This document shows positions 9,002 through 48,298 of a stretch of DNA of 64,000 bases, piece by piece (the first letter of the stretch is position 1; each line of letters starts with the position of its first letter). The DNA is taken from NCBI GenBank assembly GCA_963790475.1, contig CAWBOS010000006.1, forward strand, positions 192,001 through 256,000, given 5' to 3'. A model generated the notes under the pieces. The model searched no databases, was not told the origin of the DNA, and saw only the letters and a list, made by a program, of their open reading frames with translations. Source of the stretch: an uncultured delta proteobacterium. Its GTDB lineage: Bacteria; Desulfobacterota; RBG-13-43-22. The position numbers and the translations under genes are program-made.

Positions 9002-9066
9002 CAAGCACCTCTATCTTGGTCTGATTGACCAATTGGTCAAGTAAATCCAAAAATATGGTATAAAAA

Positions 9067-9432
9067 ATGAAGGAAACCGAGGGGAAGAACAAGAAGTACG
9101 ATTTAGAGGACCGGACTTTTGAATTTGCACGAGAGGTTATTGCTTTTGTCAATAAACTGAAAAAAACGTTGGCGAATATTGAAATTGGAAAACAACTGAT
9201 CCGGGCCGCCGGTTCAGTTGGAGCAAATTATATCGAGGCAAATGAAGGGCTGAGCAGGAAGGATTTCATTATGAGAATAAAGATCTGCCGAAAGGAAGCC
9301 AAGGAAGCCGGATACTGGATTCGTCTGATCGATTGCGAAGAAGGTCTGGAAAGTTCTAGAGAAAAGTTGGTGAGCGAAAGCAAAGAGTTAACTAAAATAT
9401 TTGGAGCAATAATTATTAGATGCAAATCCTAA
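9067..9432 (+). CDS. Four-helix-bundle protein (23S rRNA IVP / Avd-like family)
   Basis: DLEDRTFEF...QLIRAAGSVGANYIEANE..SRKDF...KEAKE..YW. Confidence 0.9.
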   Translation: MKETEGKNKKYDLEDRTFEFAREVIAFVNKLKKTLANIEIGKQLIRAAGSVGANYIEANEGLSRKDFIMRIKICRKEAKEAGYWIRLIDCEEGLESSREKLVSESKELTKIFGAIIIRCKS

Positions 9433-9466: not shown

Positions 9467-9706
9467 ATGATTAGAAATTATACCGCTAAATATATAAAAA
9501 TTAGCAAAGGGTATATGGGACAGTTAATTGAGTGGCCGGAGGTCATCACTGAAGGCCGGGATATTGAAGAATGCCGTCGAATGCTGCGGGATGCCCTAAA
9601 ACAAATGGTTTTAGCCTATAAGCAGATACATAAAGAAATTCCCATTGGCGACGGTTTGATCGAACAGCTCCCCGTGGATATCCAAGATGTCTATCAAACG
9701 GCGTGA
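9467..9706 (+). CDS. hicB: HicB-family antitoxin
   Basis: YTAKY...EWPEVITEGRDIEECRRMLRDAL. Confidence 0.85.
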   Translation: MIRNYTAKYIKISKGYMGQLIEWPEVITEGRDIEECRRMLRDALKQMVLAYKQIHKEIPIGDGLIEQLPVDIQDVYQTA

Positions 9707-9875
9707 CCTAATCAAATATCTTGAAGAAAATGGATTTCGTTTTATAAGAGAAGGTGGGAGTCATTCTATCTATTCGAATGAGAACAAAACCATCCCGGTT
9801 AAAAGGCATCGTTCTTTAGATAGAATAACCGCCAATGAACTTTGCAAGCAAGCCGGAATAATCCCAAAATTTTGA
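9687..9875 (+). CDS. hicA: HicA-family toxin
   Basis: KRRDLIKYLEENGF..IREGGSH..IPVKRH. Confidence 0.88.
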   Translation: MSIKRRDLIKYLEENGFRFIREGGSHSIYSNENKTIPVKRHRSLDRITANELCKQAGIIPKF

Positions 9876-9923
9876 TGTCAGATTTTTGGATTGGGGTATT
9901 TGAATATTAGTATGGTCTATTAT

Positions 9924-9954
9924 TTTCGGATTTCGAATTTGGGATTTAGAGTTT
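9924..9954 (+). repeat. Heptamer repeat (tttcgga/tttcgaa/tttggga/tttagag) ending at the next start codon
   Basis: Imperfect reverse complement of 9424-9454. Confidence 0.7.
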
Positions 9955-25381: not shown

Positions 25382-25445
25382 ATTCCTTGCTTGGCTATTT
25401 GAAAAAAATATGAAATTATTTAATAAAATTAAATAGATAAATAAT

Positions 25446-25461
25446 TGGTCTCAAATTTGCA
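25446..25461 (+). promoter_or_regulatory. Sigma54 -24/-12 promoter
   Basis: TGGTCTCAAATTTGCA, GG-N10-GC, downstream of two enhancer-like boxes. Confidence 0.6.
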
Positions 25462-25495
25462 ATACATTTATATAAAAAATGCAAGGAGATTCCAA

Positions 25496-28400
25496 GTGAG
25501 AAATTCACGTTTAAATATTAATTTATTGATATTACTATTTATTTTAATAGTTCTTCCGTCGGTTGCCAGGGCCGATTGGCTTGATCCCGGATGGAGTAGT
25601 CGAGGGGTAATAACCGTGACCAACCCCGGAGGGGTCTCTTTGACCGGATTTCAGGTCAAAATACCACTTAATAGTACCTTTGATTTTAGTAGGTCGAAAA
25701 ATGATGGCTCTGATATTCGTTTGACTTCAGCGGATGGCATTACCCCCGTTCCGTTTTGGATAGAGTCTTGGAATAGTGCTGAAAAAACAGGCATTTTATG
25801 GGCAAAGGTGCCATCCATTTCTCCTACGGGTACGGCCCTCTTTCTTTATTATGGAAATCCTTCGGCAGTCAGTATCTCTAATGGGTCGGCAGTATTTGAA
25901 TTTTTTGATGATTTTGAATCAAACGGCACTACGACACTCGGATACTACCAATTGAATTTTCCTCAGACGGAACTGGTAAGGGACCAAGCCTGGGAAGCAA
26001 CCGCTCCACACTCTCTCAGCGTGGTGGAAGTGAACAGCGGGGGCTACACTTATTGGGGTTATTACGGGCTGCAGGATGGCTGTGGTGGGGTCGGTCTGGC
26101 CCGCAGTAATGACCTTATTAATTGGACAAAATACTCCCTTAATCCTTTATTCAGTAATGGAAGGTGGCCTTCTGTTCTTAAGGTGGACAAGACCTTTTAT
26201 ATGCTTTATACCAAGGACTTTTGTGCTACCAGTTATATTATCTTAGCAGAAAGTACCGACGGAATAGCCTTCAGTGACGTAAAACAGATAGTGTTACCGC
26301 AAACCGGCTACCGCAACCAGAACCCCAATCTGTTTTTCAACCCAAACGATGGTCAGTATTATCTGTACTGGTACAACGGAAACGATTCAAACAATTTTAT
26401 CATTAAAGCACGAAAGGCCCCTACCCCTGAAGGATTGGATAACCCGGCTACTGAGACGATCGTATTGCAATCCAGCAATACACTGGCTGCCCCTAATATG
26501 CTATTCCGTGACGGAACGTATTTTCTCTCGACGGAAAGCAAGGATAGTTCCGGCAATTGGATTGTCGATATCTACTCCAGCACCTCGCCGACCAGCGGAT
26601 TCTCCATGCTACCCGGGAACCCAATTATTCCTGATGGTGCTGCCTGTAACTTCCAGCATGTATTTGGAACTCAACTTCATGACTACTATTGTAAACAGAC
26701 GGGAGGCGTCTGGACCTTAGACCATCAGGTCGCCGATTTGACAGCCGGACGGGTAAACGAGCCATCAGGGGATCTTAGCAAATGGGCTGCCAGCGGCGGC
26801 ACATGGAATATTGTCAGCGATATCCAGCAGGATGGATCCGTGGGCGGTGTGGCCCAGGGCAGTATCAGCAATACCCGGGACATTCTTCTCTCCTCGTACA
26901 CCGGTACAGATTATGTCCTTGAAGGGTACGGCCGGCTGCTCAGCGGGCGTGTGTGGGGTTTCGGCACGCGGGCAACCGACAAGAATAATTTGTATTCCAG
27001 TAATCTTTACGAGGACCTTGACGGGACTTATAACCTGTATGAATACGATTGGGCAGGAGGCAGGGCCTCGACGCTTGCGCTGGCGGGCGTGGGCCAGATT
27101 GACCTCGATAGCTGGTACAAGCTCACGGTGAAGGCACACGGGAACACGATAGAGGTATTTAAGGATGATGTGCTCATGATCAACCCCACCTCTTCTCAAT
27201 ATGCCTCCGGTGCGGTGGCCCTCTATGGCGAGCGAAATACCGTAGCCCAGTTCAACAACGTGCTGGTGAGGAAGTATGCAGCCACAGAGCCTGTGGCGAC
27301 AATCACGCAATCAACAGTCATCACGAGCCTCAGCCCTTCCTCTGCGACAGCCGGCGGTCCTGCTTTTACACTGACGGTGAACGGGGGCAATTTTACTGTC
27401 AATTCCGTAGTGCAATGGAACGGTTCGGCTCGAACGACCACGTTTTTATCGGGCAGCCAGCTTCAGGCGAGCATCAGTGCGGCTGATATTGCTAATTCCG
27501 GAATAGTAGGAGTCTCCGTATTTGATCCCAATTCATCCGGTCTTTCCAACACGGTCACGTTTACGGTTCAGGGTCCAGCCTTACAGCCGGTTCTCGTGAG
27601 CCTCGCTCCTTCCTCTGCGACAGCGGGTGGCCCCGCCTTCACCCTGACGGTGAACGGGAGCAATTTTACCGGAAGCTCCGTAGTGCAATGGAACGGTTCG
27701 GCGCGAACGACCACGTTCTTGTCGGGCAGCCAGCTTCAGGCGAGCATCAGTGCAACGGACATAGCCTCTTCGGGGAATGTTCCGGTGACGGTGTTTACCC
27801 CGTCACCCGGAGGAGGGACCTCGAATTCGATATCGTTTGGGATTGTTAATACCGTGCCACTTCTTGTGTCGCTCACTCCTTCTTCTGCGACAGCCGGTAA
27901 TTCTGCTTTTACCCTGACGGTGAACGGGGGCAATTTTACTGTCAATTCCGTAGTACAGTGGAACGGTTCGGCTCGAACGACCACGTTTTTATCGGGCAGC
28001 CAGCTTCAGGCGAGCATCAGTGCGGCTGATATTGCTAATTCCGGAATAGTAGGAGTCTCCGTATTTGATCCCAATTCATCCGGTCTTTCCAACACGGTCA
28101 CGTTTACGGTTCAGGGTCCAGCCTTACAGCCGGTTCTCGTGAGCCTCGCTCCTTCCTCTGCGACAGCGGGTGGCCCCGCCTTCACCCTGACGGTGAACGG
28201 GAGCAATTTTACCGGAAGCTCCGTAGTGCAATGGAACGGTTCGGCGCGAACGACCACGTTCTTGTCGGGCAGCCAGCTTCAAGCGAGCATCAGCGTAACG
28301 GATATAGTCTCGGCGGGGAATGTTCCGGTGACGGTGTTTACCCCGTCACCCGGAGGAGGGACCTCGAATTCGATATCGTTCGTTGTTGCCCCTCAACCGG

Positions 28401-29308
28401 GGCAGATAGGCTGGCTTGATCCGGCATGGAGTAGTCGAAAGTTAGTAACCATCACCAATCCGGGAGGGGTGACCCTGAGCAACTTCCAGGTTTGGGTGAC
28501 GTTAGACAGCAGCTTTGACTTTGCCAGCGTGAAAAGCGATGGCTCCGATATTCGCTTTACCATGGACGACGGCATTACCCCTGTTTCTTTCTGGATAGAG
28601 TCTTGGAACAGCACAAACCGGACGGCCCTTATTTGGGTGAATATACCGTCAATTCCATCCGCCGGGACGTCTCTTTATCTTTATTACGGAAATCCGGGTG
28701 CCGTCACGGCGGCCAACGGATCGGCAACGTTCGATTTCTTTGATGATTTTGAAGGGACAGCACTTGATACATCGAGGTGGACTGCGAGCGGAGGCACGTG
28801 GTCCATTGTCAGCGATGTCCAGCAAGACGGATCTGTGGGAGGGGTAGCCCAGGGAAGTATCAGCAACACCCTTGATATCCTTCGCTCCTCGTATACCGGT
28901 ACTGATTATGTGCTTGAAGCATACGGCCGGCTGCTCAGCGGGCGGGTATGGGGGCTTGGTACACGGGCAACGGACAAAAATAACTTGTATTCCAGCAATT
29001 TGTATGCAGATTTGGACAGTGCCTACAACCTGTATGAATATGGCTGGTCGGGAGGCCGTGCCTCGACGCTTGCGCTGGCGGGCGTGGGCCAGATTGACCT
29101 CGATAGCTGGTATATTCTCACGGTGAAGGTCCATGGGAATACGATCGAGGTATTAAAGGACGGGGTCTCCATGATCAATACTACCTCCGCTCTATATGCT
29201 TCCGGCGCTGTGGCTCTCTACGGCGAACGAAATACCGTCGCCCAGTTCAACAACGTGCTGGTAAGAAAATATGCAGCAGTGGAACCTCAGGCGACAATAG
29301 CGCCTTGA
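25496..29308 (+). CDS. Large secreted mosaic protein: DUF2341, GH43-like beta-propeller, ConA-like/DUF1080-like, 4 IPT/TIG repeats, second DUF2341 + ConA-like unit
   Basis: GTG 25496 after AAGGAG; signal peptide ARA-D; DGSDIR...FWIESW...YYGNP twice; 4x PSSATAG..FTLTVNG.NF. Confidence 0.78.
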   Translation: MRNSRLNINLLILLFILIVLPSVARADWLDPGWSSRGVITVTNPGGVSLTGFQVKIPLNSTFDFSRSKNDGSDIRLTSADGITPVPFWIESWNSAEKTGILWAKVPSISPTGTALFLYYGNPSAVSISNGSAVFEFFDDFESNGTTTLGYYQLNFPQTELVRDQAWEATAPHSLSVVEVNSGGYTYWGYYGLQDGCGGVGLARSNDLINWTKYSLNPLFSNGRWPSVLKVDKTFYMLYTKDFCATSYIILAESTDGIAFSDVKQIVLPQTGYRNQNPNLFFNPNDGQYYLYWYNGNDSNNFIIKARKAPTPEGLDNPATETIVLQSSNTLAAPNMLFRDGTYFLSTESKDSSGNWIVDIYSSTSPTSGFSMLPGNPIIPDGAACNFQHVFGTQLHDYYCKQTGGVWTLDHQVADLTAGRVNEPSGDLSKWAASGGTWNIVSDIQQDGSVGGVAQGSISNTRDILLSSYTGTDYVLEGYGRLLSGRVWGFGTRATDKNNLYSSNLYEDLDGTYNLYEYDWAGGRASTLALAGVGQIDLDSWYKLTVKAHGNTIEVFKDDVLMINPTSSQYASGAVALYGERNTVAQFNNVLVRKYAATEPVATITQSTVITSLSPSSATAGGPAFTLTVNGGNFTVNSVVQWNGSARTTTFLSGSQLQASISAADIANSGIVGVSVFDPNSSGLSNTVTFTVQGPALQPVLVSLAPSSATAGGPAFTLTVNGSNFTGSSVVQWNGSARTTTFLSGSQLQASISATDIASSGNVPVTVFTPSPGGGTSNSISFGIVNTVPLLVSLTPSSATAGNSAFTLTVNGGNFTVNSVVQWNGSARTTTFLSGSQLQASISAADIANSGIVGVSVFDPNSSGLSNTVTFTVQGPALQPVLVSLAPSSATAGGPAFTLTVNGSNFTGSSVVQWNGSARTTTFLSGSQLQASISVTDIVSAGNVPVTVFTPSPGGGTSNSISFVVAPQPGQIGWLDPAWSSRKLVTITNPGGVTLSNFQVWVTLDSSFDFASVKSDGSDIRFTMDDGITPVSFWIESWNSTNRTALIWVNIPSIPSAGTSLYLYYGNPGAVTAANGSATFDFFDDFEGTALDTSRWTASGGTWSIVSDVQQDGSVGGVAQGSISNTLDILRSSYTGTDYVLEAYGRLLSGRVWGLGTRATDKNNLYSSNLYADLDSAYNLYEYGWSGGRASTLALAGVGQIDLDSWYILTVKVHGNTIEVLKDGVSMINTTSALYASGAVALYGERNTVAQFNNVLVRKYAAVEPQATIAP
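27337..28381 (+). repeat. Near-identical tandem duplication of a two-IPT unit, period 543 bp
   Basis: 27361 onward matches 27904 onward; 27421 matches 27964. Confidence 0.9.
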
Positions 29309-36709: not shown

Positions 36710-36940
36710 ATGAGAATAACCGCACATATTCCGGATAATATTGCAAAAGATGTTAAGAGGTTTGCTGACAATGAAAAGATGTCGGTATCGGCGGTAATAG
36801 CCGAAGCGCTTCAATATTATGTTTACGAAAAAAAAAAGATGGAAACCGGGAAAAAAGTTTTGGCCATGATCGGCAAGGTGCACGTTTCTGAAGATGCACA
36901 TAAAGAACTTAATAAAATGAGAGCAGAGACTGAAAGATGA
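36710..36940 (+). CDS. RHH-type antitoxin
   Basis: MRITAHIPD...SVSAVIAEAL; ATGA overlap with PIN gene; TTGACA-17-TAATAT at 36650-36678. Confidence 0.8.
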   Translation: MRITAHIPDNIAKDVKRFADNEKMSVSAVIAEALQYYVYEKKKMETGKKVLAMIGKVHVSEDAHKELNKMRAETER

Positions 36941-37329
36941 TAGGTTTGGATTCGGGTTTTTTTGTTGAGCTTCTTAAGGGCAATCAACAAACCGAAAGAA
37001 TCTGGAATGACATTTTGGATGGTCAAGGTTCTGTAGTATCGTGCATTTCTTTATTTGAACTTAAGAGGCTCGGCCTGAAAGGTTTGATTGATATCAGCAC
37101 GATCGACACTATTAATGAAGCGATTATGAATATATGCAATATTGCCTGGTTAGATAATGTTACTGTTGTCAATACGGCTGCTAATTTTTCCCACGGATTG
37201 GGAATCCACATGGCTGATGCCTTGATCCTTTCAGGATTTATTAAATATGGAGTTACGAAAATATACACAACGGATCAACACATTTCTTTGTATAAGAAAA
37301 AAGGCGTGAGGGTTATTATGCTAATTTAA
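36937..37329 (+). CDS. vapC: PIN-domain toxin (VapC)
   Basis: GLDS, SLFEL, ADALI, YTTD. Confidence 0.88.
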   Translation: MIGLDSGFFVELLKGNQQTERIWNDILDGQGSVVSCISLFELKRLGLKGLIDISTIDTINEAIMNICNIAWLDNVTVVNTAANFSHGLGIHMADALILSGFIKYGVTKIYTTDQHISLYKKKGVRVIMLI

Positions 37330-37367
37330 TCCATGACTTTTTTTACTTTGTTCTTATAGGGCGCCTT

Positions 37368-37552
37368 TCAATTGACCGGATGGAACGGGCGTGAGAAAAA
37401 AGGTGAAAGGAACTAGGAGCGGGTTATGGGTGGGGATTTGTTGAGTTTGTTGAGTCAATTGGGTTCATTGAGTTATTGGGTTTAATTGGTAGGCTTGGGT
37501 ATCCTCTTTTAATACAAAAATACCGTTTGTCGTTTATCGTTCGGTGTTCGGC
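37368..37552 (+). repeat. Element 3' arm followed by 7-mer and 9-mer arrays
   Basis: tcaattgaccggatggaacgggcgtgag; ttgttgagtttgttgagtcaattgggttcattgagttattggg. Confidence 0.8.
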
Positions 37553-37701
37553 GAACCCCAATTTTCATACTTCGGGGCGGTTGGCAAAGGTCTGAGGGTT
37601 TTATATAAAAAAACTCCGCACAAACTGTACGGGTTTTTTATCGGTAATAAATTGTTTGGGATAAGAATTTTATTAGTGTTTTTTCCTTGTCCGGGTAGCG
37701 G

Positions 37702-37910
37702 CTAACTCTTAATTCTCAAATTTTCTAAAGTTGGAACCGTTTTAAAGAGATCGCTTTCCGTTGCCTTTCGGTCGAAGGTGTAAGTTACCACAGCCTTTTC
37801 ACGATGATTGGAAAGACCGATAAGATAGTCGGCAAAGTCAGCCTTTCAGTCTGCCGCTGGTCATTGCGGACAATATAGCGAATAAGAACATTGGTATCCA
37901 ATCCAATCAA
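37702..37910 (-). pseudogene. VapC with large internal deletion and frameshift
   Basis: MIGLDTNVLIRYIVRND joined out of frame to KADFADYLIG...TYTFDRKA. Confidence 0.8.
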
Positions 37911-38140
37911 GACGATGCCCCTTTAGCTATTGCCTTATCCATATCAGCCAAGGATAGGGCTTTTTGGGGTTTAGGGACCATCCCCTTCAAACTGGATATC
38001 GTTTCCACCACAGGAATGATCTCCAACCTTTCATTGTCAATGACAATAAATTCCAGTTTACTGCCCGGGATAATTTTCAGTCGTCTCCTGGCTTCAGCCG
38101 GTAGAGTCACTTGTCCTTTGCTGGTTACCGTGGCAATCAT
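37907..38140 (-). CDS. AbrB/MazE-type antitoxin
   Basis: ATVTSKGQVTLPAEARRRL..PGSKLEF. Confidence 0.9.
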   Translation of the reverse strand: MIATVTSKGQVTLPAEARRRLKIIPGSKLEFIVIDNERLEIIPVVETISSLKGMVPKPQKALSLADMDKAIAKGASS

Positions 38141-38216
38141 TTCTTACCTCTTCTATATGTTCCTTACTTTTTAACCTTACTTTATCCAAATAAAATATTT
38201 TGTCAAGAGAATCCAT

Positions 38217-38293
38217 GTCCGGAGGGGATGGGCGAGAGAAGAAAATAGTGCCCTGAGGGACTGACGATAGGAGGAAGACAGGTCGTCTTCCTC
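38217..38293 (+). repeat. Element 3' arm plus gccc-n4-ggg / ggaagac-n5-gtcttcc module
   Basis: Matches 62141-62219 and 35017-35062. Confidence 0.8.
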
Positions 38294-38377
38294 GTTTCCA
38301 GCCGTAGTCGTTGGTACAAGGAAAATCCTCATTGCTAAAATTCCGAATGTAGTGTATTGTAGTACAAGAGGTGGGAA

Positions 38378-38596
38378 ATGAGAAACGTATTATCTGTGAG
38401 CCTTCCGGGAAATTTGGTGAAAGACCTTAATAGTTTTGCCAAGTCAACAGGAAGGAATAAAAGCGACATTTTAAGAGATTCGTTGGGCAATTACCTTTGG
38501 GAAATTAAATTCAAGGAGACCAAGAAACGCCTTTCCGCCAAAGCAAAGAAAGCCGGAATCATAACCGAAGATGATGTTTTTAAAACGGTATCATGA
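38378..38596 (+). CDS. RHH/CopG antitoxin
   Basis: LSVSLP...GRNKSDILRDSL...AGIITEDDVF. Confidence 0.85.
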   Translation: MRNVLSVSLPGNLVKDLNSFAKSTGRNKSDILRDSLGNYLWEIKFKETKKRLSAKAKKAGIITEDDVFKTVS

Positions 38597-39000
38597 AAGC
38601 CGCTTTCGATACTAATGTCCTAGTTGCGGCATTCCTTACCGACGGTTTATGCTCCAAGCCCCTTTTAAGAGCACGCCGCAAGGAATTCTCCTTAATTCTG
38701 TGCCCTTATATTTTGCAGGAGTTTCAAAAATTTCTTCAAGCAAAAATTAAGGCCTCAAGCCGGGAAATAGAAATGGCGGTTAAGCTCCTTGAAGAAGGGG
38801 CTTTTGAGATAAAGCATCCTTCGATGATTATTGAAAGGACATGCCGAGATATCGATGATGATAATATTCTCAGCTGTGCCTTGGCTTCAGAATCGGAGTA
38901 TTTGGTGACCGGAGATGATGATTTATTAACACTTCATAAGTATGGAAAAACAAAAATCATCAAACCTCGACAGTTTGAAGATCTTTTTGTCGACAATTAA
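38593..39000 (+). CDS. PIN-domain toxin (PIN_3 type)
   Basis: FDTNVLV, CRDIDDD, LVTGDDDLL. Confidence 0.9.
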   Translation: MKAAFDTNVLVAAFLTDGLCSKPLLRARRKEFSLILCPYILQEFQKFLQAKIKASSREIEMAVKLLEEGAFEIKHPSMIIERTCRDIDDDNILSCALASESEYLVTGDDDLLTLHKYGKTKIIKPRQFEDLFVDN

Positions 39001-39053
39001 AAGAATTGCCCAACCACGTTCTTCGGTTATCGGTGGCAAAAAAAGCCTTTCTA

Positions 39054-39485
39054 TCCACGGACCCACACAGACAGAAACTGGGACAATAGCTTATCTCTCG
39101 CGGAGCACGCGGAGGCACAGAGATTTTTTTCATTGCGGTTGAGGGACCGCAATGAAAAACACCCCGTAGTCTGATTTCCCTTTCTCAGAAAATCAGACTA
39201 TAAGTAACACACTCTGCAAACTCTGAAGGCTTGAGCGAAGCGGGCGGGAGAAAAGGGGTTTTGAAGTCAAAATGAAAAATGGAAAGTGCAGTTTGGTCTG
39301 TTTGGTCTATTGAGTCTATTGAGTTTGTTGAGTTCATTGCGTTGAGGAGAGAGGAAGAAGGAGAAAGGACAGGAAACACGGGGAAGAATGGATTGATGGA
39401 ATAATGGAAAAGGCAACAAGGATCAACCCAAACCACTCAAGTAACTCAATAACCCAACTAACTCAAGCAACCCAATAAATTCAAC
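39054..39485 (+). repeat. Modular hairpin element (39094-39252) followed by stacked 7/9/8-mer arrays with an inverted 9-mer pair
   Basis: 39291-39345 (ttgagtctattgagtttgttgagttcattg) is complementary in type to 39424-39485 (actcaataacccaactaactcaa). Confidence 0.82.
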
Positions 39486-39908
39486 GGTGCCGGGTTCAGA
39501 TGAATTTACCCTCTTAACAATAAAAAACCCCCCACATAATGCAAGCCTTCCCAATGACCGTCCACATAATAATCCTTCACACTCTCCGTATAACCATTCC
39601 TTGCCTCATGTAGATCTCCCTCGACTGGTGTTACAATCGAAGTATTTGGTTCCACACCTACAGGTGGTAGGGAGAAATTTAACCACGCAACCACACTGAG
39701 ATCATTAGTTGCTTCCAGTCCTGCCTTTGTCGGTGGCAAAAGAGAAGTATTAAAAGACTTTTTAGACACAGAACCAAGGAAGGAGAAACGAAGAAACAAG
39801 GTATGGAACGATAGCCTAAAAAATATTGACACTTTATGGTATAAAGTGTACCCTTTGCTCAGAATATAAAAGAATATTTCCCATTGCTGTAAAATTGAGG
39901 TGATCTAA

Positions 39909-40145
39909 ATGATAGAGGTAAATGCCAAAAAGGCTCGTGGGCAGTTAAGCTCCTTGCTTAAACAAGTCGAGGAAGGAGAAGAAGTGATCATTTCCCGTAA
40001 TGGAAAAAGGATTGCCCGGATGGTTTCTTTAATAGAATCCCCCAAGCGACTTCCAAGCTTGAATGATTTCAGGGCAAAGGTCAGAATTAATGGTGAGCCG
40101 CTGAGTGGAATCGTGGTGCAATCCCGGAAGGAAGAACGCTATTGA
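39909..40145 (+). CDS. Phd/YefM antitoxin
   Basis: VNAKKARGQLSSLLKQVEEGEEVIISRNGKRIARM; upstream palindrome acactttat-ggt-ataaagtgt over a TTGACA. Confidence 0.88.
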   Translation: MIEVNAKKARGQLSSLLKQVEEGEEVIISRNGKRIARMVSLIESPKRLPSLNDFRAKVRINGEPLSGIVVQSRKEERY

Positions 40146-40212
40146 TGATGGTATTGAAAAAAGTTCACAATCGTTACGAGCCTATTGAGGCATCATCCTA
40201 GGGAGGTAATCG

Positions 40213-40668
40213 TTGATGGTTTATGTAGATACCAGTCTTCTTGCCGCCTATTATTCCCCTGAACCTTTGAGCGGGAAAGCAGAGGAATTTCTAATTGGTC
40301 AGGAGGGGTTGGCCATCAGCAGTCTGACCGAAATTGAGCTTTTTTCAGCCCTTTCAAGAAAGGTGCGGGAGGAAGGACTTCATCAAATGGATGCTAAAAA
40401 GATTGCTTCTCGGTTTCTGTCCCATGTGGATGGGAATTTTTTCAAATATCTTACAGTAGAAACCAGACATTATCGACTGGCACGTGATTGGTTGGGGTTG
40501 TTCAACACCAGTCTGCGAAGCCTGGATGCCTTGCATTTAGCCGTAGCCTCATCACAAGGATTAGCTGTCGCTACCTCCGATCTTAAATTTTCCCAATCAG
40601 CTCGCGCAATGGGTCTGGAAGTTCTGTTGATTTCGTTTGAGGAGCCGAATGCCGAGAAAAGCATTTAA
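40213..40668 (+). CDS. vapC: PIN-domain toxin (VapC)
   Basis: YVDTS, TEIEL, LRSLDALHLA, TSD. Confidence 0.9.
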   Translation: MMVYVDTSLLAAYYSPEPLSGKAEEFLIGQEGLAISSLTEIELFSALSRKVREEGLHQMDAKKIASRFLSHVDGNFFKYLTVETRHYRLARDWLGLFNTSLRSLDALHLAVASSQGLAVATSDLKFSQSARAMGLEVLLISFEEPNAEKSI

Positions 40669-40710
40669 AAGTATCTGTGACCAGGGCTTCAGTCTAATAC
40701 TCTTCTATAT

Positions 40711-41052
40711 CTATATGGATAGATGAACCTTCATGGCCTTGTCAATCGCTTCTATATCTTCGAGTTCCAGTTTCCCTATGAATTTTATCAACCTCCTTCG
40801 ATCAAGGGTCCGAATCTGATCGGCCTTAACCTTGGAGTCTTTGGGCAGGTTGCCTTTTCCCTGAGGGATGAAAACCTCAAAAGGGTAAATCTTCTCCAAG
40901 TTTTTAGAGGTAACCGTAAGAACGGTCACTGTGCTTGAATACAGGTTATTGACGTCATTGGAAACCACCACCACCGGCCTGGTTTTTGCTATTTCGTTCC
41001 CGATTGCCGGATCTAGACCGGCCAGAAAGACATCGCCTCGCTTAATATTCAT
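40711..41052 (-). CDS. mazF: MazF/PemK toxin
   Basis: RGDVF..LDPAIGNEIAKTRPVVVVSND...DQIRTLDRRRL. Confidence 0.92.
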   Translation of the reverse strand: MNIKRGDVFLAGLDPAIGNEIAKTRPVVVVSNDVNNLYSSTVTVLTVTSKNLEKIYPFEVFIPQGKGNLPKDSKVKADQIRTLDRRRLIKFIGKLELEDIEAIDKAMKVHLSI

Positions 41053-41296
41053 CCCAGCCCTCCAAGTCGATAATGAAAAAATCTTGCGAAATTTCCCGAC
41101 CTTCTCCGTTGCGGACTTGGTAGCCTTCCTTCAGTATTTGTTCTTGTCGTTCCCTCCGCATTTTTTTCAATTTTTCTCTCAAGGTCATTGCAATAAATTG
41201 ACTTTTTTTGCGTGGTTCAACAAATTGATTTAATTCCTCCACTAGTTCATCCGGCAAAGTAATATTCAGCCTGGTGGTCTCCATAATGCACCTCAT
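41042..41296 (-). CDS. RHH/CopG antitoxin
   Basis: RLNITLPDEL...KSQFIA...LKEGYQ. Confidence 0.85.
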   Translation of the reverse strand: MRCIMETTRLNITLPDELVEELNQFVEPRKKSQFIAMTLREKLKKMRRERQEQILKEGYQVRNGEGREISQDFFIIDLEGWDEY

Positions 41297-41422
41297 TTGA
41301 TGTATTAATAATACATATTAATTTACACATTCAATTAAATTTTATCAAGATAAATTTGGAACACCTTAATAGGAAAAAAAAACGAAGATTGGTGACTGAG
41401 CAACCTATGAAAAGAGTTTTAT

Positions 41423-41518
41423 AGTCAAAATGAAAAATGCAAAAGATAAAGTGCAAAATGAAAAAAGGGTAAAGGGGAGGGTGGTGGGTTCATAGTCAGA
41501 GAGCTGGGTTCAGAGACC
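41423..41518 (+). repeat. Heptamer arrays (agtcaaa/atgaaaa/atgcaaa type, then G-rich)
   Basis: agtcaaaatgaaaaatg identical at 39265-39281; related tract at 48341. Confidence 0.78.
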
Positions 41519-41944
41519 TCAACATATCTTTTCCCCTTGTGCGGCTACTTTTAACCTTGCATCATAGGTCAAAAGCAGCAATTCAGGAAAATGGTCTTGA
41601 AGACCCTTGGCAGCAGATAGATGCCAGAGGTCGGCTCCTCCGAGGGGCCATTTATTGGACAGATTCCTGATGATATTCCATTGGGGGATGATAAATAACC
41701 GTCTCCAAGGACCATTTTCCAAAACTTCAACTGCTGCATCCACAAGAAGCGCGGCCATGTCTCTTTCGCGCCGAATTCTCGATAAAACCGCAAGCACTTC
41801 TGCATAGGATAAATGGGAAAGGAAATGGTGTCCTGATTGACCGGCCCATTTCTGGGCGTTCTGGCTGTGTTCATCTAATAGGAGGGCTGAAAGTACGGCC
41901 GAGGCATCCCAGTAGATGACTACCGGTTTTTCTTCCCTTGTCAT
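41519..41944 (-). CDS. vapC: PIN-domain toxin (VapC)
   Basis: YWDASA, SYAEV, GADLWHL, TYD. Confidence 0.88.
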   Translation of the reverse strand: MTREEKPVVIYWDASAVLSALLLDEHSQNAQKWAGQSGHHFLSHLSYAEVLAVLSRIRRERDMAALLVDAAVEVLENGPWRRLFIIPQWNIIRNLSNKWPLGGADLWHLSAAKGLQDHFPELLLLTYDARLKVAAQGEKIC

Positions 41945-42228
41945 CGGTCTCTTCCCTCTTGAAGATATCTTTGGGCTAAACCTTCCGGTGCGGGAAGGGG
42001 CGGGGGGAGACGTCTTCCGTAATTTTTTGACAAGGGTTCGGTCAACCCTTGTTCTTCCAGGATTCGGATACGATCCTCAAGGGAAAGTTTTTTCTGAGAA
42101 AAAGGGATTATTCTCCCTATCGGCTTGCCCCGTTCGGTAATAATGACCTCCTGACCTTCTTTAACTTTTTTCATTACTTTGCTCAAATTAATTTTGGCAT
42201 CCCGTATTCCAAAGGTTTTCGATAGCAT
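41941..42228 (-). CDS. Phd/YefM antitoxin
   Basis: GIRDAKINLSKVMKKVKEGQEVIITERGKPIGRI. Confidence 0.9.
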   Translation of the reverse strand: MLSKTFGIRDAKINLSKVMKKVKEGQEVIITERGKPIGRIIPFSQKKLSLEDRIRILEEQGLTEPLSKNYGRRLPPPLPAPEGLAQRYLQEGRDR

Positions 42229-42315: not shown

Positions 42316-42572
42316 GTGAAAGGGAAAAGGGGAAAGGGGAGAGGGGTTGGTTACGGGTTACAAGTTGCGGATTCATTGAAAAGTCTTGGGTTGAGGACTG
42401 AGGAGAAAGGATTTTTTACGCCAAATCCAACAAATTACAGTCAGTCAATAAAGGAAACAGACCAAACGACCAGACAGATAAAACAGACCAAACGACCAGA
42501 CAGATAAAACAGACCAGAAAGACCAAAAAAACGAACAGACCAAAAAAAAACCAGATAGACTCAATTAACTCT
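42316..42572 (+). repeat. G-rich heptamer tracts followed by C/A-rich 9-mer tract with a perfect 26-bp tandem duplication
   Basis: aaacagaccaaacgaccagacagata at 42455-42480 and 42481-42506. Confidence 0.85.
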
Positions 42573-42801: not shown

Positions 42802-43686
42802 ATGATGATGGACAAACAAACCAAACTGAGAACCGCATTATTTTTTCTGATAACAGTCATTATCGGCCTGTTGATTTTATTTCCTCTAAAGGCACTTTTG
42901 TATTCGGAATCCAAAGGGATGTATTATGAATATTATTCCCATATTCTTTTGATACCCCTGGTGAGCGCCTACTTGCTTTATAACCGTCGCCAAGAAATAT
43001 GGGAATTCAAGAAAACCGCCATCCCGGTGTCGGGAGTTTTGGTTGGCGTTATTGGTATTATAGGCTACGGGACAGCCTTGGTACAAGATCAAAACATGGG
43101 ATTCATTAATGCCGTCGCCGGGCAAATCACTGGCTTACTTATTGCCTGGTTGGGAGCCTTCCTGCTTTTCTGGGGGACGGCCGCTTTTCGGCAGGCCCTT
43201 TTCCCTTTGCTGTTCCTTTTCTTTATGGTGCCGGTCCCCATGGATCTGATGGACGCCTTTATTTATGCCCTCCAGTGGGGGTCTTCCGAGGCTACAGGGC
43301 TGATCTTCAGTGTCCTCGGCACCCCTTATTACCGGGAAGGCTTCATCTTTCAACTGCAGACGGTCACCATCGAAGTAGCCAGGCAGTGCAGCGGCATCCG
43401 CTCCACCATGGCCATGGTCATCACCGGTGTCCTGGCCGCCCACCTTTTTTTGCGCGACAACGGGAAGAAGCTGATCCTGATGTTGACCATATTACCAATA
43501 ACTGTTTTTAAAAACGGCCTAAGGATCGTCATCCTGACGCTTTTGGCCATTCATGTTGACATGCGTTTCCTGACCGACAGCTTTTTGCACCATTCCGGGG
43601 GGTTTTTGTTTTATATACCGGGACTTTTAATTTTTGGGGGAATCCTCTTGCTTTTAAGAAGAGTTGAAAAAAGGACTGAGGACTGA
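42802..43686 (+). CDS. xrt: Exosortase (EpsH family)
   Basis: YSH, FMVPVP, CSGIRS (Cys), NGLRI (Arg), LHH (His). Confidence 0.92.
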   Translation: MMMDKQTKLRTALFFLITVIIGLLILFPLKALLYSESKGMYYEYYSHILLIPLVSAYLLYNRRQEIWEFKKTAIPVSGVLVGVIGIIGYGTALVQDQNMGFINAVAGQITGLLIAWLGAFLLFWGTAAFRQALFPLLFLFFMVPVPMDLMDAFIYALQWGSSEATGLIFSVLGTPYYREGFIFQLQTVTIEVARQCSGIRSTMAMVITGVLAAHLFLRDNGKKLILMLTILPITVFKNGLRIVILTLLAIHVDMRFLTDSFLHHSGGFLFYIPGLLIFGGILLLLRRVEKRTED

Positions 43687-43706
43687 GTGCTTAGGATTGA
43701 GGGGTG
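43672..43706 (+). repeat. Heptamer repeat aggactg/aggattg spanning the exosortase stop
   Basis: 43672-43683 is the exact reverse complement of 44271-44282. Confidence 0.85.
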
Positions 43707-43769
43707 AATTAGATAGAAGACCGGGAATGATTTTAAGGGACATTTTCAAGAATTTGAAAGGAAAGAATT

Positions 43770-44162
43770 GTGGAAAAGAAAAAAATTGAAAAATTTGAAG
43801 ATTTGATTGCCTGGCAGAAAGCCCGCGAATTGACAAAAATTATTTACCAAATTACGAACTACGGGAAGTTTTCGACGGATTTTGGGGTAAGGGATCAAAT
43901 CCGAAGATCAGCCGTTTCCAATATTGCTGAAGGATTCGAGCGGGGAGGTCGGGCGGAATTCCACCAATATTTAGTTATTGCAAAAGGCTCTTGCGCGGAA
44001 TTAAGATCCCAATTATATGTTGCCTTGGATGCCGGGTATCTTGACATAGTCACCTATCAAAAAGTAAATGCCTTGGCTGAAGAAACAAGCCGTTTGATAG
44101 GTGGACTTAGATCAGCAGTCTATCGCCAGAAAACTGTTGATCGTGTAAAGAGAACAAATTAA
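43770..44162 (+). CDS. Four-helix-bundle protein (23S rRNA IVP / Avd-like)
   Basis: [13 protein letters not shown]...[17 protein letters not shown]...[12 protein letters not shown]. Confidence 0.9.
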
Positions 44163-44259
44163 GATAAGAGGGAAAACATAACAAAAAGAGTTTATTTTGG
44201 TATTCGGAATTGAAGAAAACGAACCTTATTCCCGGAGCATAAGGTCTGATGAATAAGTT

Positions 44260-44282
44260 CTCAGTCCATCGTCCTCAGTCCT
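44260..44282 (+). repeat. Heptamer repeat ctcagtc just before the prsK start
   Basis: ctcagtc catcgtc ctcagtc ct. Confidence 0.85.
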
Positions 44283-44288
44283 AAAAAA

Positions 44289-46415
44289 ATGCTTTCCTAT
44301 ACTTTACTTATATCTTTAGTCGCTGCTTCCCTGGCGGGTCTGATTGCCGCCCTGGCCCTGTATCGCGATCCCCACAACTTGGTACACAAGATATTGGCCG
44401 CTGGGATGGTGGTTCTGGCTGTTGACGCAATCTTGACCTTCCTGAGCAGGGGGGCTTCCGAGCCTATGGGCATGATCGCCTGGCGGCAATGGCTTTACCT
44501 GGTTTCTGCTTTTCTTCCGGCCTTGTGGCTGGCCTTCGGTCTCAGCTATGCCCGTGCCGATCACCGGGAAAATCTGTTGCGCTGGAAATGGACCCTGGGC
44601 CTCGTCTTGGTCATCCCTCTGGTGCTGGCTGGCATTTATCGGGATGCTCTTTTTGCCGGGCCGCCGGTTTGGATTCCCGACACCGGGTGGGTCATTCCCT
44701 TGGGATGGGCAGGTTACGCCTTTAATCTGTTCCTACTCATTACCTTTATTATGATTCTTCTCGATTTGGAAAAGACCCTACGGGGTTCGCGCGGGGTCAT
44801 GCGCTGGCAGATCAAGTTTACTGTCCTGGGTCTGATCGCCCTTTTCGGAGCACGGATATTCACTTCCAGCCAGAATATTCTTTATCGCTCCGATAACCTG
44901 GACTTGGCGCTGGTCAACAACGGGGCACTTATTATCGCCGGGGTGTTGATTCTTCGGTCGTTGTTTCGGACCAAATTCTTCAGTGCTGAGCTCTATGTTT
45001 CCCAAAAGATTCTCTACAACTCGCTGACCCTGCTGATTATCGGCATTTACTTCATCGCCGTCAGTCTTTTGGCCAAGCTTTCGACCTACTGGTTCCTCGG
45101 CCGGACCTTACCCCTCCAGGCCTTTTTCCTACTGGTGGCCCTGGTAGGTTTAACGATCCTCATTTTTTCCGACCGGCTTCGCCGCAAAACCAAGCTTTTT
45201 ATCAGCCGTAATTTCCAACGCCCCCTTTACGACTATCGTAAGGAATGGATCCGTTTCACCCAGGAGACCACGGCGGTTCGAAATGTCCAGGATCTTTGTC
45301 AGGCTGTAACCCGAATGGTTTCTGATATCCTCCATTTCCTTTCCGTAACCATCTGGTTGGTGGACGAAGCAGGTGGAAGGCTGGTTCTGGGCGGTTCCAC
45401 AGCGATTACCCAACAGGAGGCCGATTCTCTGAGACCCTTCGAAAAGGCACAGAAAGAATTAATCGAGGCTATGGCTATGGAAGTGGATCCGGTGGATTTT
45501 GACAGCGCTTCGACTTCCTGGTCCATCAGCATCCCGGAATTAGACCTGGAATTTTTGAAGGCGGCTCGAATCCGCTATGTGGTGACTCTTCGAGCCGGAG
45601 AAACCTTGATCGGGTTGTTGACCTTGGATCAAAGAGTAGCCGAAGATCTATTGACCCTGGAGGACTTCGACCTCATTAAGACCATCGCCGATCAGACTTC
45701 CGCCGGATTGAACCAGTTAAGATTGGCCGAAAAGGTCCAGAAGACCCGGGAGATGGAGGCCTTTCAAACCATGTCCACCTTTTTCATCCATGACCTGAAA
45801 AATGTGGCCTCCCGTCTTTCACTGACCATGCAGAATCTGCCGGTACATTTTAACAATCCCGAGTTCCGGCAAGATGCCCTGCAAAGCATCGGCCAGAGTC
45901 TGGAAAAGATCAACGGATTATGCAGCCGCCTATCCTCCTTGCGGGAAAAACTGGAGGTGCATCTGAAAGAAGCTGATCTGAACGAAATGGTAAAAAAGAA
46001 TCTATCTGAATTTGAAGGAGCGTTGCAAGCCCGCCTGATCCAGGACTTTACCCCACTTCCCAGAATTCCATTGGACCTGGAGCAGATTTCCAAGGTCCTG
46101 ACCAACCTGGTCTTAAATGCCAATGAAGCCCTAACTCCCGGGAATGCCGGCGGCGAAATCCGGGTGGCCACTCGCCTTTTGAATAATTGGGTCGAGTTTT
46201 CGGTTAGTGACAATGGTCTGGGCATGTCCCGGGAAATGATAGAGCGCTCCCTTTTCCTGCCTTTCCGGACCACCAAGAAGCAAGGCATGGGCATCGGCCT
46301 TTTTCAGAGTAAGATGATTGTCGAAGCCCACCACGGACGCATCGAGGTGGAAAGCGAGGAGGGAAAGGGGACGACGTTCAGGGTGTTGCTGCCGACCTAT
46401 AATAAAAGGGGGTAG
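44289..46415 (+). CDS. prsK: PEP-CTERM system histidine kinase
   Basis: Multi-TM N-terminus, RWQIK, YDYRKEW, GAF region, FFIHDLKN, NLVLNA, GMGIGL. Confidence 0.92.
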   Translation: MLSYTLLISLVAASLAGLIAALALYRDPHNLVHKILAAGMVVLAVDAILTFLSRGASEPMGMIAWRQWLYLVSAFLPALWLAFGLSYARADHRENLLRWKWTLGLVLVIPLVLAGIYRDALFAGPPVWIPDTGWVIPLGWAGYAFNLFLLITFIMILLDLEKTLRGSRGVMRWQIKFTVLGLIALFGARIFTSSQNILYRSDNLDLALVNNGALIIAGVLILRSLFRTKFFSAELYVSQKILYNSLTLLIIGIYFIAVSLLAKLSTYWFLGRTLPLQAFFLLVALVGLTILIFSDRLRRKTKLFISRNFQRPLYDYRKEWIRFTQETTAVRNVQDLCQAVTRMVSDILHFLSVTIWLVDEAGGRLVLGGSTAITQQEADSLRPFEKAQKELIEAMAMEVDPVDFDSASTSWSISIPELDLEFLKAARIRYVVTLRAGETLIGLLTLDQRVAEDLLTLEDFDLIKTIADQTSAGLNQLRLAEKVQKTREMEAFQTMSTFFIHDLKNVASRLSLTMQNLPVHFNNPEFRQDALQSIGQSLEKINGLCSRLSSLREKLEVHLKEADLNEMVKKNLSEFEGALQARLIQDFTPLPRIPLDLEQISKVLTNLVLNANEALTPGNAGGEIRVATRLLNNWVEFSVSDNGLGMSREMIERSLFLPFRTTKKQGMGIGLFQSKMIVEAHHGRIEVESEEGKGTTFRVLLPTYNKRG

Positions 46416-46478
46416 GGTATAGGGTGTAAGGGGTAGGGTGGATACTTAATATGGGTTTTAGGGGGTAGGGTGTTAGCT
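46407..46478 (+). repeat. G-rich heptamer repeat (agggtgt type) spanning the prsK stop
   Basis: agggggt agggtat agggtgt aaggggt agggtg; complementary C-rich tract at 46917-46946. Confidence 0.8.
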
Positions 46479-46510
46479 AGAGATAGGAAGCGAAAAAATG
46501 AGGGCAAAAA

Positions 46511-46868
46511 ATGGAGAGTTATAAGGAGTTGATCGCTTAATCAAAAAGGTTATCAATTATCCCTTCAGGTTTATGAGATTACAAAAAGATTTCCGAAAGA
46601 AGAGATTTATGGAATAATTTCTCAAATGAGGAGGAGCGCCGTTTCGATACCCTGTAACATCGTGGAAGGATATCGACGAGGACACAGAAAGGAACATATA
46701 CAATTCCTTTATATGTCTTATGGGTCTTGCAGTGAATTGGAGACCCTCCTTTCTTTATCTAAAAATCTTGGCTTTTTAGAACAGCACTTTTTTGATAAGA
46801 TTTATTCCTTACAAGAAGAAACTTCGAACTTATTGAAAAGTTTAATTGTATCCTTATCCCGGAAGTGA
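46511..46868 (+). pseudogene. Four-helix-bundle gene with +1 frameshift
   Basis: MESYKELIA then TAA 46538-46540; removing one A gives AYQKGYQLSLQVYEITKRFPKEEIYGIISQMRRSAVSIPCNIVEG. Confidence 0.85.
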
Positions 46869-46903
46869 TTTAGTTAGAACCCCCGGATTGAAAGGAAAAG
46901 AAT

Positions 46904-48298
46904 ATGCCGGAAGAATCACCCCCTCCCACCATCCCCCTCCCCCCTATTCAGAAGCCGCGTCTTCTTATCGTTGAAGATGATGAATCCATTCGCACCCAAA
47001 TGAAGTGGGCCCTGATGCAGGACTACGATGTCTTTCTATCCGAAGACCGGGCCAGGGCTTTAGATCTTTTGCGTTTGGAAAAGCCCGCCGTAGTAACTTT
47101 GGACCTCGGACTGCCACCAACCCCGGCGGATGTGACCGAAGGCTTTGCTGCTTTGGCTGATATCCTGGCTGAGGACAATCTGGTCAAGGTGATTATTATT
47201 ACCGGACAAGGGGAAAAGGACAACGCGCTGAAAGCCGTGGCCGAGGGGGCCTACGATTTCTTTATCAAACCCATACAGCTTGACGAACTTAAGGTGGTTA
47301 TTAGACGGGCCTTTTACGTTTCCCGTCTGGAACGCGAGAACCGGGTCTTACAGCAACAGGGGGCCGGACAGCCCTTTGCCGAAATGCTGGGCCGCAGCCC
47401 GCAGATGGAGGAGGTCATTACCACCATCCGCAAGGTGGCCACTACGGATGTTTCGGTGCTGATCAATGGTGAGAGCGGAACCGGTAAGGAATTAGTGGCC
47501 CGGGCCATTCATCAACATAGCAACAGGAGCAGCGGGCCGTTTGTAGTGATTAACTGTGGGGCAATCCCGGAGAACCTTCTGGAAAGTGAATTGTTCGGCC
47601 ACGAGAAGGGCTCCTTCACCGGTGCCCATATACAGCGCAAGGGTTTAATCGAGATGGCCCAGGGAGGAACCTTATTTCTAGATGAGATCGGGGAATTACC
47701 GCTGGGCCTGCAGGTCAAGCTCCTGCGTTTCCTTCAAGAACAGACCATTGAACGCGTCGGTGGAAGGGTCCAGATTGCCATAAATGCTCGGGTGTTGGCT
47801 GCCACCAACCTGGACCTCCAAAAGGCTGTGGCCGAGGGTCGCTTCCGTGAGGACCTTTATTTTCGGCTGGGAGTGATTTCCATTGCCCTACCGCCCTTAC
47901 GGGATCGGGAAGGTGACCTGATACTGCTGGCTAATGCTTTTCTGCATCGATATGTCCAGGAAACCAGAAAGAAAATAACCGGTTTCACTCAACAGGCCGT
48001 CAGGGCGATGGGCCAATATGCGTGGCCGGGGAACATCCGGGAGCTGGAAAACCGAATCAAGCGGGCGGTGGTCATGGCTGATGGAGCCAAGATTAATCCA
48101 CTGGACCTGGAACTGGAAACAGCCAAGGGTAAATATTACGGTCTTACTCTGAAAGATGCCCGGGAGGCTGTGGAAAAAGAACTGATTTTGAAGGCTCTGC
48201 AAAGGAATAAGGGGAAGGTGACCCAAACAGCCGATGAGCTGGGCATCAGCCGCCCTACCTTATATGAGCTTATGGAGAAGCTGGGGATTTCGAAATAA
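46904..48298 (+). CDS. prsR: PEP-CTERM-box sigma54 response regulator
   Basis: REC (TLDLGLPP), [27 protein letters not shown]; follows prsK. Confidence 0.92.

Follow-up and report, generated by a model that had tools for sequence, protein, structure and literature searches.

The four-helix-bundle (4HB) proteins of PF05635/TIGR02436 form a very large family that was first found inside rRNA intervening sequences (IVSs). A homologous four-helix bundle, Avd of the diversity-generating retroelements (DGRs), is a pentamer that binds nucleic acid. Heptamer repeats between genes have long been noted, without explanation, in cyanobacteria, Xanthomonas, Beggiatoa and Bacteroidota. Here we analyze a 64,000-nucleotide (nt) stretch of an uncultured delta proteobacterium (assembly GCA_963790475.1, contig CAWBOS010000006.1, positions 192,001 to 256,000), hereafter the window, in which 4HB inserts bounded by heptamer arrays occupy both junctions of a PEP-CTERM/exosortase operon, namely those between xrt and prsK (xrt|prsK) and between prsK and prsR (prsK|prsR). 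Comparison across genomes gives good support to the view that a G-rich array, a 4HB gene and an inverted C-rich array, with repeat units of 7–9 nt, constitute a widespread cassette; the two window copies are co-directional with their host genes and each fits precisely into the gap from one gene's stop codon to the next gene's start codon. We denote the source genome G000 and related genomes G001 and so on.

The closest described systems are the IVSs of 23S rRNA. In Coxiella burnetii and Leptospira a PF05635 open reading frame (ORF) sits in a 0.4–0.6-kb insert with complementary ends that form a stem of ~28 bp; these inserts are passive in the host transcript, some have no ORF and in others it is often in decay, and the Coxiella IVS, with its 28-bp stem and decaying S23p ORF, is excised by RNase III (PMC4990558). 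A 2024 preprint calls PF05635/TIGR02436 'functionally uncharacterized' (10.1101/2024.02.27.582315). The window inserts differ from these IVSs in that they lie in a protein-coding operon, at xrt|prsK and prsK|prsR, and not within a 23S rRNA gene; their arms are tandem arrays of 7–9-nt units that are clade-specific and abut stop and start codons.

The second point of comparison is the heptamers themselves. Those of Xanthomonas (GGGAATC), Nostoc (GGGGA(C/T)T, of the short tandemly repeated repetitive, or STRR, type) and Beggiatoaceae (TAACTGA) share the placement seen in the window: on the sense strand they closely follow stops, on the antisense strand they precede ORFs. The Xanthomonas heptamers often form convergent inverted pairs and are transcribed (PMC4692102, PMC4679880). 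Rehm et al. located G-rich heptamers within 50 bp of genes, downstream of a stop when on the sense strand or in front of an ORF when on the antisense strand, counted 70–75 convergent pairs and read them as quadruplexes (PMC4692102). This work and that of MacGregor (PMC4679880) propose G-quadruplex or regulator-binding roles, and term searches in the two papers gave no mention of S23p or four-helix-bundle genes. The window arrays differ in that they form the two arms of a cassette with a gene inside, and the majority of units in the family cannot form a G-quadruplex. Our literature search recovered no paper that connects PF05635 with heptamer arms, although one may exist in subscription journals or in supplements outside the search. 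What is new here is an old, decaying prsK|prsR insert with an arm absorbed into PrsR, the replacement of the passenger at that slot, turnover at the junction between guaB and guaA (guaB|guaA), and negative tests of wobble pairing, target-site duplication and Shine–Dalgarno (SD) content.

The ORF map and family scans give the order xrt, 4HB gene 1, prsK, 4HB remnant and prsR along the + strand, on which all features located below lie. The 5′ arm of cassette 1 (43672..43702), resolved by Tandem Repeats Finder (TRF) into 4.4 degenerate copies of AGGACTG with TGA and TAG triplets inside, takes in the final xrt codons and the xrt TGA (43684–43686), which falls in the second unit, while its 3′ arm (44254..44282; TRF, ~3.9 copies of AGTCCTC) ends 6 nt before the prsK ATG (44289). 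They enclose 4HB gene 1 (43770..44162), which has a GTG start and encodes 130 aa (PF05635 105.3 bits, 2.4e-30; TIGR02436 93.5 bits); its frame is intact but, in alignment, 3 residues short in the conserved S-I-P-S-N-I-A-E-G motif. The nearest solved structure to its product is 2gsc (XCC0516), with five chains, described as a homopentamer (PMC4990558). The original prediction had singled out a 12-nt exact inverted repeat at this junction, and it is indeed present: AGGACTGAGGAC at 43672–43683, immediately 5′ of the xrt TGA, is the exact reverse complement of 44271–44282, which ends 6 nt 5′ of the prsK ATG. Equally correct was the statement that this ATG has no evident SD, there being no purine-rich SD in the sequence that precedes it (...cctcagtcctaaaaaaATG). 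The 12-nt repeat is the best-matched core of two longer, imperfect inverted heptamer arrays, in which inverted pairs span 22–23 nt at 74–77% complementarity.

To score such arms, we compared the 200 nt upstream of a gene with the reverse complement of the 200 nt downstream, calling a gene armed at a score of ≥13. The arm pair of cassette 1 taken alone is unusual but not extreme, because 162 of 5780 crude G000 genes score ≥12. When the RNA from 43660 to 44295 was folded, both arms paired in the minimum free energy and centroid structures (z = −2.95; 0/20 shuffles as stable), so that the complementary ends and long closing stem that characterize IVSs are found in the fold of cassette 1, whereas that of cassette 2 is no better than shuffles. 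The xrt|prsK cassette was seen in G000 only, and no empty xrt|prsK site was found in relatives; the upstream gene in G013 differs (by eye) and the G003 contig begins at prsK.

The arm pattern is general within the gene family. In G000, flank scores of ≥13 were reached by 97 of 5780 crude genes; of the 11 crude genes with an overlapping PF05635 match, 6 did so; most of the other high scorers are insertion sequence (IS) transposases. In a multi-phylum set of 80 4HB loci, of which 77 were scored after 3 were dropped for short flanks, inverted arms were present at 43/77 loci, against 5/77 in the direct control and 4/77 in the reversed-only control, and the mean flank score was 15.3 versus 8.3 for shuffles. 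A second, metagenomic set comprised 80 relatives of the cassette 1 protein (53–72% identical), 73 of them with usable flanks; here 44/73 were armed, against 11/73 in the direct control. The excess of inverted complementarity on which the original prediction depended is thus found in both sets.

Across the multi-phylum loci, the arms are tandem arrays built from 6–9-nt units, and the median arm measures 30 nt (~4–5 units). The median gap is 28 nt from the upstream arm to the 4HB start and 14 nt from the 4HB stop to the downstream arm. Their polarity is consistent, with G exceeding C in the upstream arm of 48 of 50 armed loci (43 multi-phylum and 7 from G000). The expected coincidence of arms with stop and start codons is likewise seen: a co-directional upstream stop abuts the arm in 37/43 armed loci (median distance from the end of the stop to the start of the arm, −1 nt), and a downstream start abuts it in 36/43 (median distance past the arm, 13.5 nt). 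Both neighbors are co-directional with the 4HB gene in 32/43. The 5′ arms are moreover enriched in stop triplets, with 1.02 per 10 nt over 94 arms versus 0.62 ± 0.03 when shuffled (0/300 as high). We also considered the possibility that 5′ arms mimic an SD and rejected it, as GGAG, GAGG, AGGA or AAGG occurs in 35/94 arms, where shuffled arms average 51.8, and these motifs are no denser than in shuffles.

The repeat unit tracks the 4HB clade, as had been anticipated. Two consecutive AGNNNTG units occur in 28/44 armed relatives of cassette 1 versus 1/50 armed loci of other clades, and the exact AGGACTG unit of cassette 1 is present in its closest metagenomic relatives. A period of 7 characterizes 43/44 of these armed relatives, and a period of 8 is found in 16/50 of the other set. 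Mapped on a tree of the proteins of 94 cassettes, unit class undergoes 23 changes versus a shuffled mean of 47 (0/300 as low) and period 12 versus 18. The flanks of the cassette 1 relatives fall into 30 context clusters among 40, and cross-phylum 4HB pairs at 54–57% identity share units; since a protein clade keeps its unit in gene neighborhoods that are unrelated to each other, the arms belong to the cassette and not to the host site. The original prediction had gone on to propose that the protein recognizes its own repeat type. The correlation between clade and unit that this calls for is there, but co-inheritance also produces such a correlation; as the classes are post hoc and kin share labels, the link therefore shows that gene and arms travel together, not that one recognizes the other. 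A one-to-one pairing of 4HB genes with repeat families was considered separately and rejected, given 243 distinct canonical heptamer units versus 13 PF05635 matches in G000.

Cassette 2 is a decayed counterpart. Its 5′ arm (46404..46472), detected as a direct-repeat family, consists of G-rich GGGTAGG-type heptamers, the first unit of which supplies the prsK TAG; the triplets TAG, TAG, TAA and TAG at 46413, 46420, 46427 and 46434 place stops in all three frames, and the arm has a conserved counterpart in G003, G017 and G020. The 3′ arm (46917..46946; TRF) is a C-rich tract that encodes a Pro-rich N-terminal extension of PrsR, whose TIGR02915 model begins at residue 20. The 4HB sequence between them (46511..46868) opens with an ATG at 46511 in a frame that ends at TAA 46538, because of a 1-nt insertion at ~46539–46541 relative to the intact G003 orthologue (GCTTAATCAA versus GCTT-ACCAA in the alignment). 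The residual ORF (46626–46868), corresponding to the C-terminal two thirds, matches PF05635 positions 35–105 of 106 and still scores 75 bits with PF05635 and 77 bits with TIGR02436. Unless the assembly is in error, 4HB gene 2 in G000 is a +1-frameshift pseudogene, and the claim that each pair of repeats encloses one 4HB gene holds for the intact gene 1 but not for this one.

A PrsK search of 40 related genomes gave six true orthologous loci that we read, and the prsK|prsR junction is filled in 6/6 of them. Intact 4HB genes are found in G003 (118 aa; PF05635 129.6 bits) and G017 (126 aa; 133.6 bits), the G020 copy is broken by an in-frame TAG, G014 and G027 have 4HB remnants (by eye, unscored), and G013 has instead a truncated PDDEXK_3 (GxxExxY-type) gene between a perfect 17-nt inverted repeat. 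The 4HB copies in G003, G017 and G020 lie between G-rich and C-rich heptamer arms, which are truly complementary in G017 and G020 (0/200 shuffles as good). In G000, G017 and G020 the C-rich arm shares the reading frame of the PrsR N-terminus; the PrsR of G013, where the slot has a different passenger, is without the Pro-rich extension. Taken together, occupancy and arm state across the six loci give good support to the reading that the insert is old and predates the split of several genera, that its gene was repeatedly lost and that one arm was taken into the host protein. With regard to Avd, the G003 and G017 orthologues reach 32 bits on the bAvd-like PF22296, below the cut-off of 40, and 0/9 RVT_1 (reverse transcriptase) matches in G000 lie on the window contig (C6) or beside a 4HB gene, template and variable repeats not having been scanned.

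Several further observations concern this junction and its surroundings. The G003 PrsR has no canonical in-frame start 5′ of the C-rich heptamer tract, the nearest TTG being in another frame, which could reflect a misassembled C-run or a shift of frame through a change in heptamer copy number. The PDDEXK_3 genes at L002 (G013) 1069–1386, which is the prsK|prsR occupant, and at G000 C12:1305567–1305905 have the same GACAGGATTAACAGGAT-type inverted repeat flanks, and five other G000 copies are flanked by direct repeats; PDDEXK_3/GxxExxY as a general second passenger was rejected, with inverted arms in only 1/6 G000 copies. About 200 nt upstream of prsK in G017, G014 and G020, inverted GGGTGTA/TACACCC-type arrays surround a conserved gene-less stretch with a sigma-54-like TGG-N9-TTGC motif (tggtgccgaagttgcc), both noted by eye and unscored.

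A second slot, guaB|guaA, which we compared in 12 genomes of the genus and family, illustrates how such inserts turn over. In G001, G014 and G015 it has no 4HB gene: G001 and G015 carry clear gene-less hairpins of GTTCGTC or GTTCGGC units, and G014 a short gap that is only partly complementary. G010 and G004 have a 4HB gene between GTTCGTC arms, while in G000, G005 and G006 a related 4HB gene has AGTTCGG arms that are themselves enclosed by remnants of GTTCGTC arms, and in G003, G007, G008 and G012 a 4HB gene of another clade (type B) has AAGGTNN arms. Gene-less pairs are common genome-wide. G000 has 2653 short tandem arrays, and we counted 92 inverted pairs that enclose no gene and whose arms are <200 nt apart, the G-rich arm coming first in 70/92 and the C-rich arm in 5, which is the polarity of the cassettes. 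Such hairpins are most simply read as cassette relics or landing sites.

Considering these features together, we give a probability of roughly 0.5 to the reading that the cassettes are IVS-like, operon-riding and probably mobile inserts whose arms act as an RNA stem. The cassette would be carried on the host operon transcript; the 5′ array may halt incoming ribosomes through its enriched stop triplets, and the two arrays would pair into a 20–45-bp stem that closes off the passenger gene. Such a stem would resemble the RNase III-cut stem of ORF-bearing 23S rRNA IVSs, so that the insert would be tolerated between co-transcribed genes. The 4HB protein, presumably pentameric, might in addition read its own arms. 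Given that the layout equals that of an ORF-bearing 23S rRNA IVS, the same reading is the most economical one for operon transcripts. The variable unit positions also tend to mirror each other between arms (26/31 loci above the permutation mean, 7 at p ≤ 0.05), which fits arm pairing. In line with carriage on a host transcript, we found no excess of terminators or promoters between the operon genes (5 vs 5.8 expected; 4 vs 3.9).

Several results weigh against this reading. Mismatches between arms are A–C in 113 cases versus G–U in 67, the opposite of what pairing of the sense RNA leads one to expect, and A–C exceeds G–U in 25 of 50 loci while G–U exceeds A–C in 11. Pairing is often confined to the unit core. 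Where orthologous Flavobacterium loci differ, the two arms have changed together, and homogenization at the DNA level would give the same outcome. In G000, the arms of cassette 2 pair no better than base composition allows, with a duplex energy of −45.0 versus −46.7 ± 4.8 for a shuffled C-rich arm (127/200 shuffles as good), and the fold of the region is no better than shuffles (z = −0.71); the G-rich and C-rich tracts that the original prediction took for a second inverted pair exist, but not with complementarity beyond their composition. As for mobility, which is inferred only, no target-site duplication was found over 87 loci, the longest direct match outside the arms being 3.14 nt versus 3.19 in the control, and no recombinase was found for the cassettes. 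The numbers themselves must be read with the score threshold of 13 and the unit classes having been chosen after the data were seen, with crude gene calls and with non-independent related genomes. Finally, a stem alone does not explain a 4–5-nt core and a period (7, 8 or 9) conserved within clades; these point to a second constraint, which most simply would be a protein reading its arms.

The question of mobility invites comparison with two classes of known elements. The cassettes resemble MITEs (miniature transposable elements with inverted repeats) and other transposons with terminal inverted repeats (TIRs) in being small units with inverted repeats, in their presence or absence at orthologous sites and in their gene-less relics, and they resemble integron gene cassettes in being promoter-less and co-directional. 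They differ from both in that the arms vary between G000 copies and are internally tandem-repetitive, that target-site duplication is absent and that no transposase, integrase or attC was seen.

The alternative that survives best, and which we regard as possible, takes the arms as binding arrays on RNA or DNA, with one core per subunit of the pentamer, that would serve autoregulation or the maintenance or movement of the element; it is compatible with a stem, and the inverted layout may be likened to transposon terminal repeats or operator pairs. Core and period are clade-specific at 53–72% protein identity, where unconstrained DNA should be scrambled, and the units hold across 30 different contexts and in cross-phylum pairs at 54–57% identity. 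The median arm of 30 nt amounts to ~4–5 units, compared with the five chains of 2gsc, described as a homopentamer (PMC4990558), and complementarity is often limited to the core. Yet simple co-inheritance of gene and arms gives the same correlation, abundant AAGGT-type arrays (78 of GGNNNAA ×3) occur in G000 with no 4HB gene that has matching arms, and proteins that are ~55–60% alike (by eye) differ in unit, as do that at G000 C12:1347563 and the type-B genes of its congeners. The AGNNNTG class of the window is nearly private to the cassette, with only 5 arrays (×3) in G000, rank 113 of 256 cores, and on the same figures we rejected a trans-regulon for the window cassette.

There is also a broader proposal that we put forward tentatively, as something that may well turn out otherwise. 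PF05635 proteins might be sequence-specific readers of tandem 7–9-nt arrays, and the gene with its inverted arrays a self-recognizing mobile 'intervening element' of operon stop/start junctions and of rRNA helices. The heptamer repeats and hairpins found between genes in many bacteria (STRR, Xanthomonas GGGAATC and the 92 G000 hairpins) would be what remains of it after decay, and arrays absorbed into coding sequences, such as the PrsR N-terminus and the linker of a deacetylase described below, would reshape host proteins.

It is unlikely, in our estimate, that the arms arose at the DNA level and belong to the site, as host hairpins generated by slippage and palindrome correction in whose permissive loops 4HB and other small genes accumulate. 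The 2653 arrays and 92 gene-less pairs of G000, with their 70 versus 5 polarity matching the cassettes, would be expected on that account, as would the gene-less GTTCGTC hairpin in G001 where G010 has a 4HB gene within GTTCGTC arms, the nesting of inner arms in outer ones in G006 and G000, the common unit of adjacent intergenic gaps and the PDDEXK_3 gene in the prsK|prsR slot of G013. It is opposed by the unit following the protein clade into 30 unrelated contexts, by the type-B guaB|guaA cassettes, which bring AAGGT arms and show no GTTCG remnant, and by the finding that G000 inverted pairs ~340–550 nt apart with a complete 118–130-aa ORF nearly all hold a 4HB gene.

Far less probable is that the arrays are G-quadruplex or i-motif elements of regulation or stability, as proposed for the Xanthomonas and Nostoc heptamers, with the 4HB gene incidental. 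The cassette 2 arm GGGTAGGGTATAGGGTGTAAGGGGTAGGG does fit the G3+N1–7 pattern, and the G-rich repeats of Rehm et al., with their 70–75 convergent pairs, have the same geometry (PMC4692102); however, most units (AGGACTG, AGTGATG, GCTTAAA, TTAGCCG) are without G-tracts and cannot form quadruplexes, and both the link to one gene family and the clade-specific units are left unexplained. Hardly credible, lastly, is an invertible segment (inverton) or chance complementarity of low-complexity sequence, although inverted repeats do flank a short segment and both arms are of low complexity, since co-directionality with the upstream neighbor in 37/43 loci and with both neighbors in 32/43 makes frequent inversion unlikely, and chance is ruled out by the direct, reversed and shuffled controls.

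The host genes are well defined. The exosortase gene xrt (42802..43686; PF09721 1.1e-45) passes only the general model TIGR02602 (127.7 bits, cut-off 105.55), with the XrtA model at 130 versus a cut-off of 208 and the XrtC model also below its cut-off. prsK (44289..46415) encodes the XrtA/PEP-CTERM system histidine kinase (TIGR02916 383.3 bits, cut-off 300), with a start consistent with its G013 and G003 orthologues, and prsR (46904..48298) the PEP-CTERM-box sigma-54 response regulator (TIGR02915 628 bits, cut-off 502.6). With both equivalog models above their cut-offs, the host operon is a PrsK–PrsR two-component system. The two cassettes are AT-richer than the genes around them, with a GC content of 0.34–0.44 compared with 0.50–0.57.

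The window also contains a third, divergent 4HB gene (9067..9432; PF05635 53.1 bits, TIGR02436 71.5 bits), and all three of its 4HB genes score above the family cut-offs of 33.8 bits (PF05635) and 24 bits (TIGR02436). The claim that each of the three has a different flanking repeat family fails at this gene, which has no heptamer arms (flank score 8.5) and is flanked only by a 23-nt, 83% inverted repeat (9044–9066 / 9870–9892). A HicB-like (UPF0150) and HicA pair (9467–9875) lies directly 3′ of it, and the inverted repeat spans all three genes. G000 has 13 PF05635 matches in total, five of them within 58 kb (C6:181088–238838), a polysaccharide/PEP-CTERM region that includes the window, versus ~0.12 expected by length; by eye, 9–10 of the 13 have short tandem repeats in inverted orientation on their two sides, the unit being different for each. 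At C13:330098–330310 of G000, a 195-aa protein has a weak PF05635 match (25 bits) beside a neighbor that looks Cas4-like by eye, unscored. An anti-phage defense library gave 0 matches for three 4HB proteins.

Elsewhere in the window, just upstream of xrt (36900–42000), lies a toxin–antitoxin-type island with four PIN-domain ORFs and a MazF/PemK ORF, and tandem-repeat hairpins occur between these genes (e.g. 39291–39343 facing 39425–39478; 42455–42546). A 273-nt tandem repeat (27325–28293; 3.6 copies, 74% match) lies within a 1287-aa ORF (25445–29308). C-rich tandem arrays at 10232–10488 and 10810–10922 (AACCTCG ×10, ACCCAATGA-type and CTATGAG) are in frame within a polysaccharide deacetylase ORF (9953–11263; PF01522 at residues 178–285), where they are apparently translated as low-complexity linkers.

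If the gene and its arms are indeed one entity, a protein family of no assigned function and the intergenic heptamers would become a single puzzle, and the intervening-sequence idea would extend from rRNA to mRNA operons. For the host, the regulatory core of the PEP-CTERM/exosortase system tolerates inserts at both of its gene junctions, and one arm forms the N-terminus of a response regulator, which matters when start sites are annotated and when expression data for operons of this kind are interpreted.

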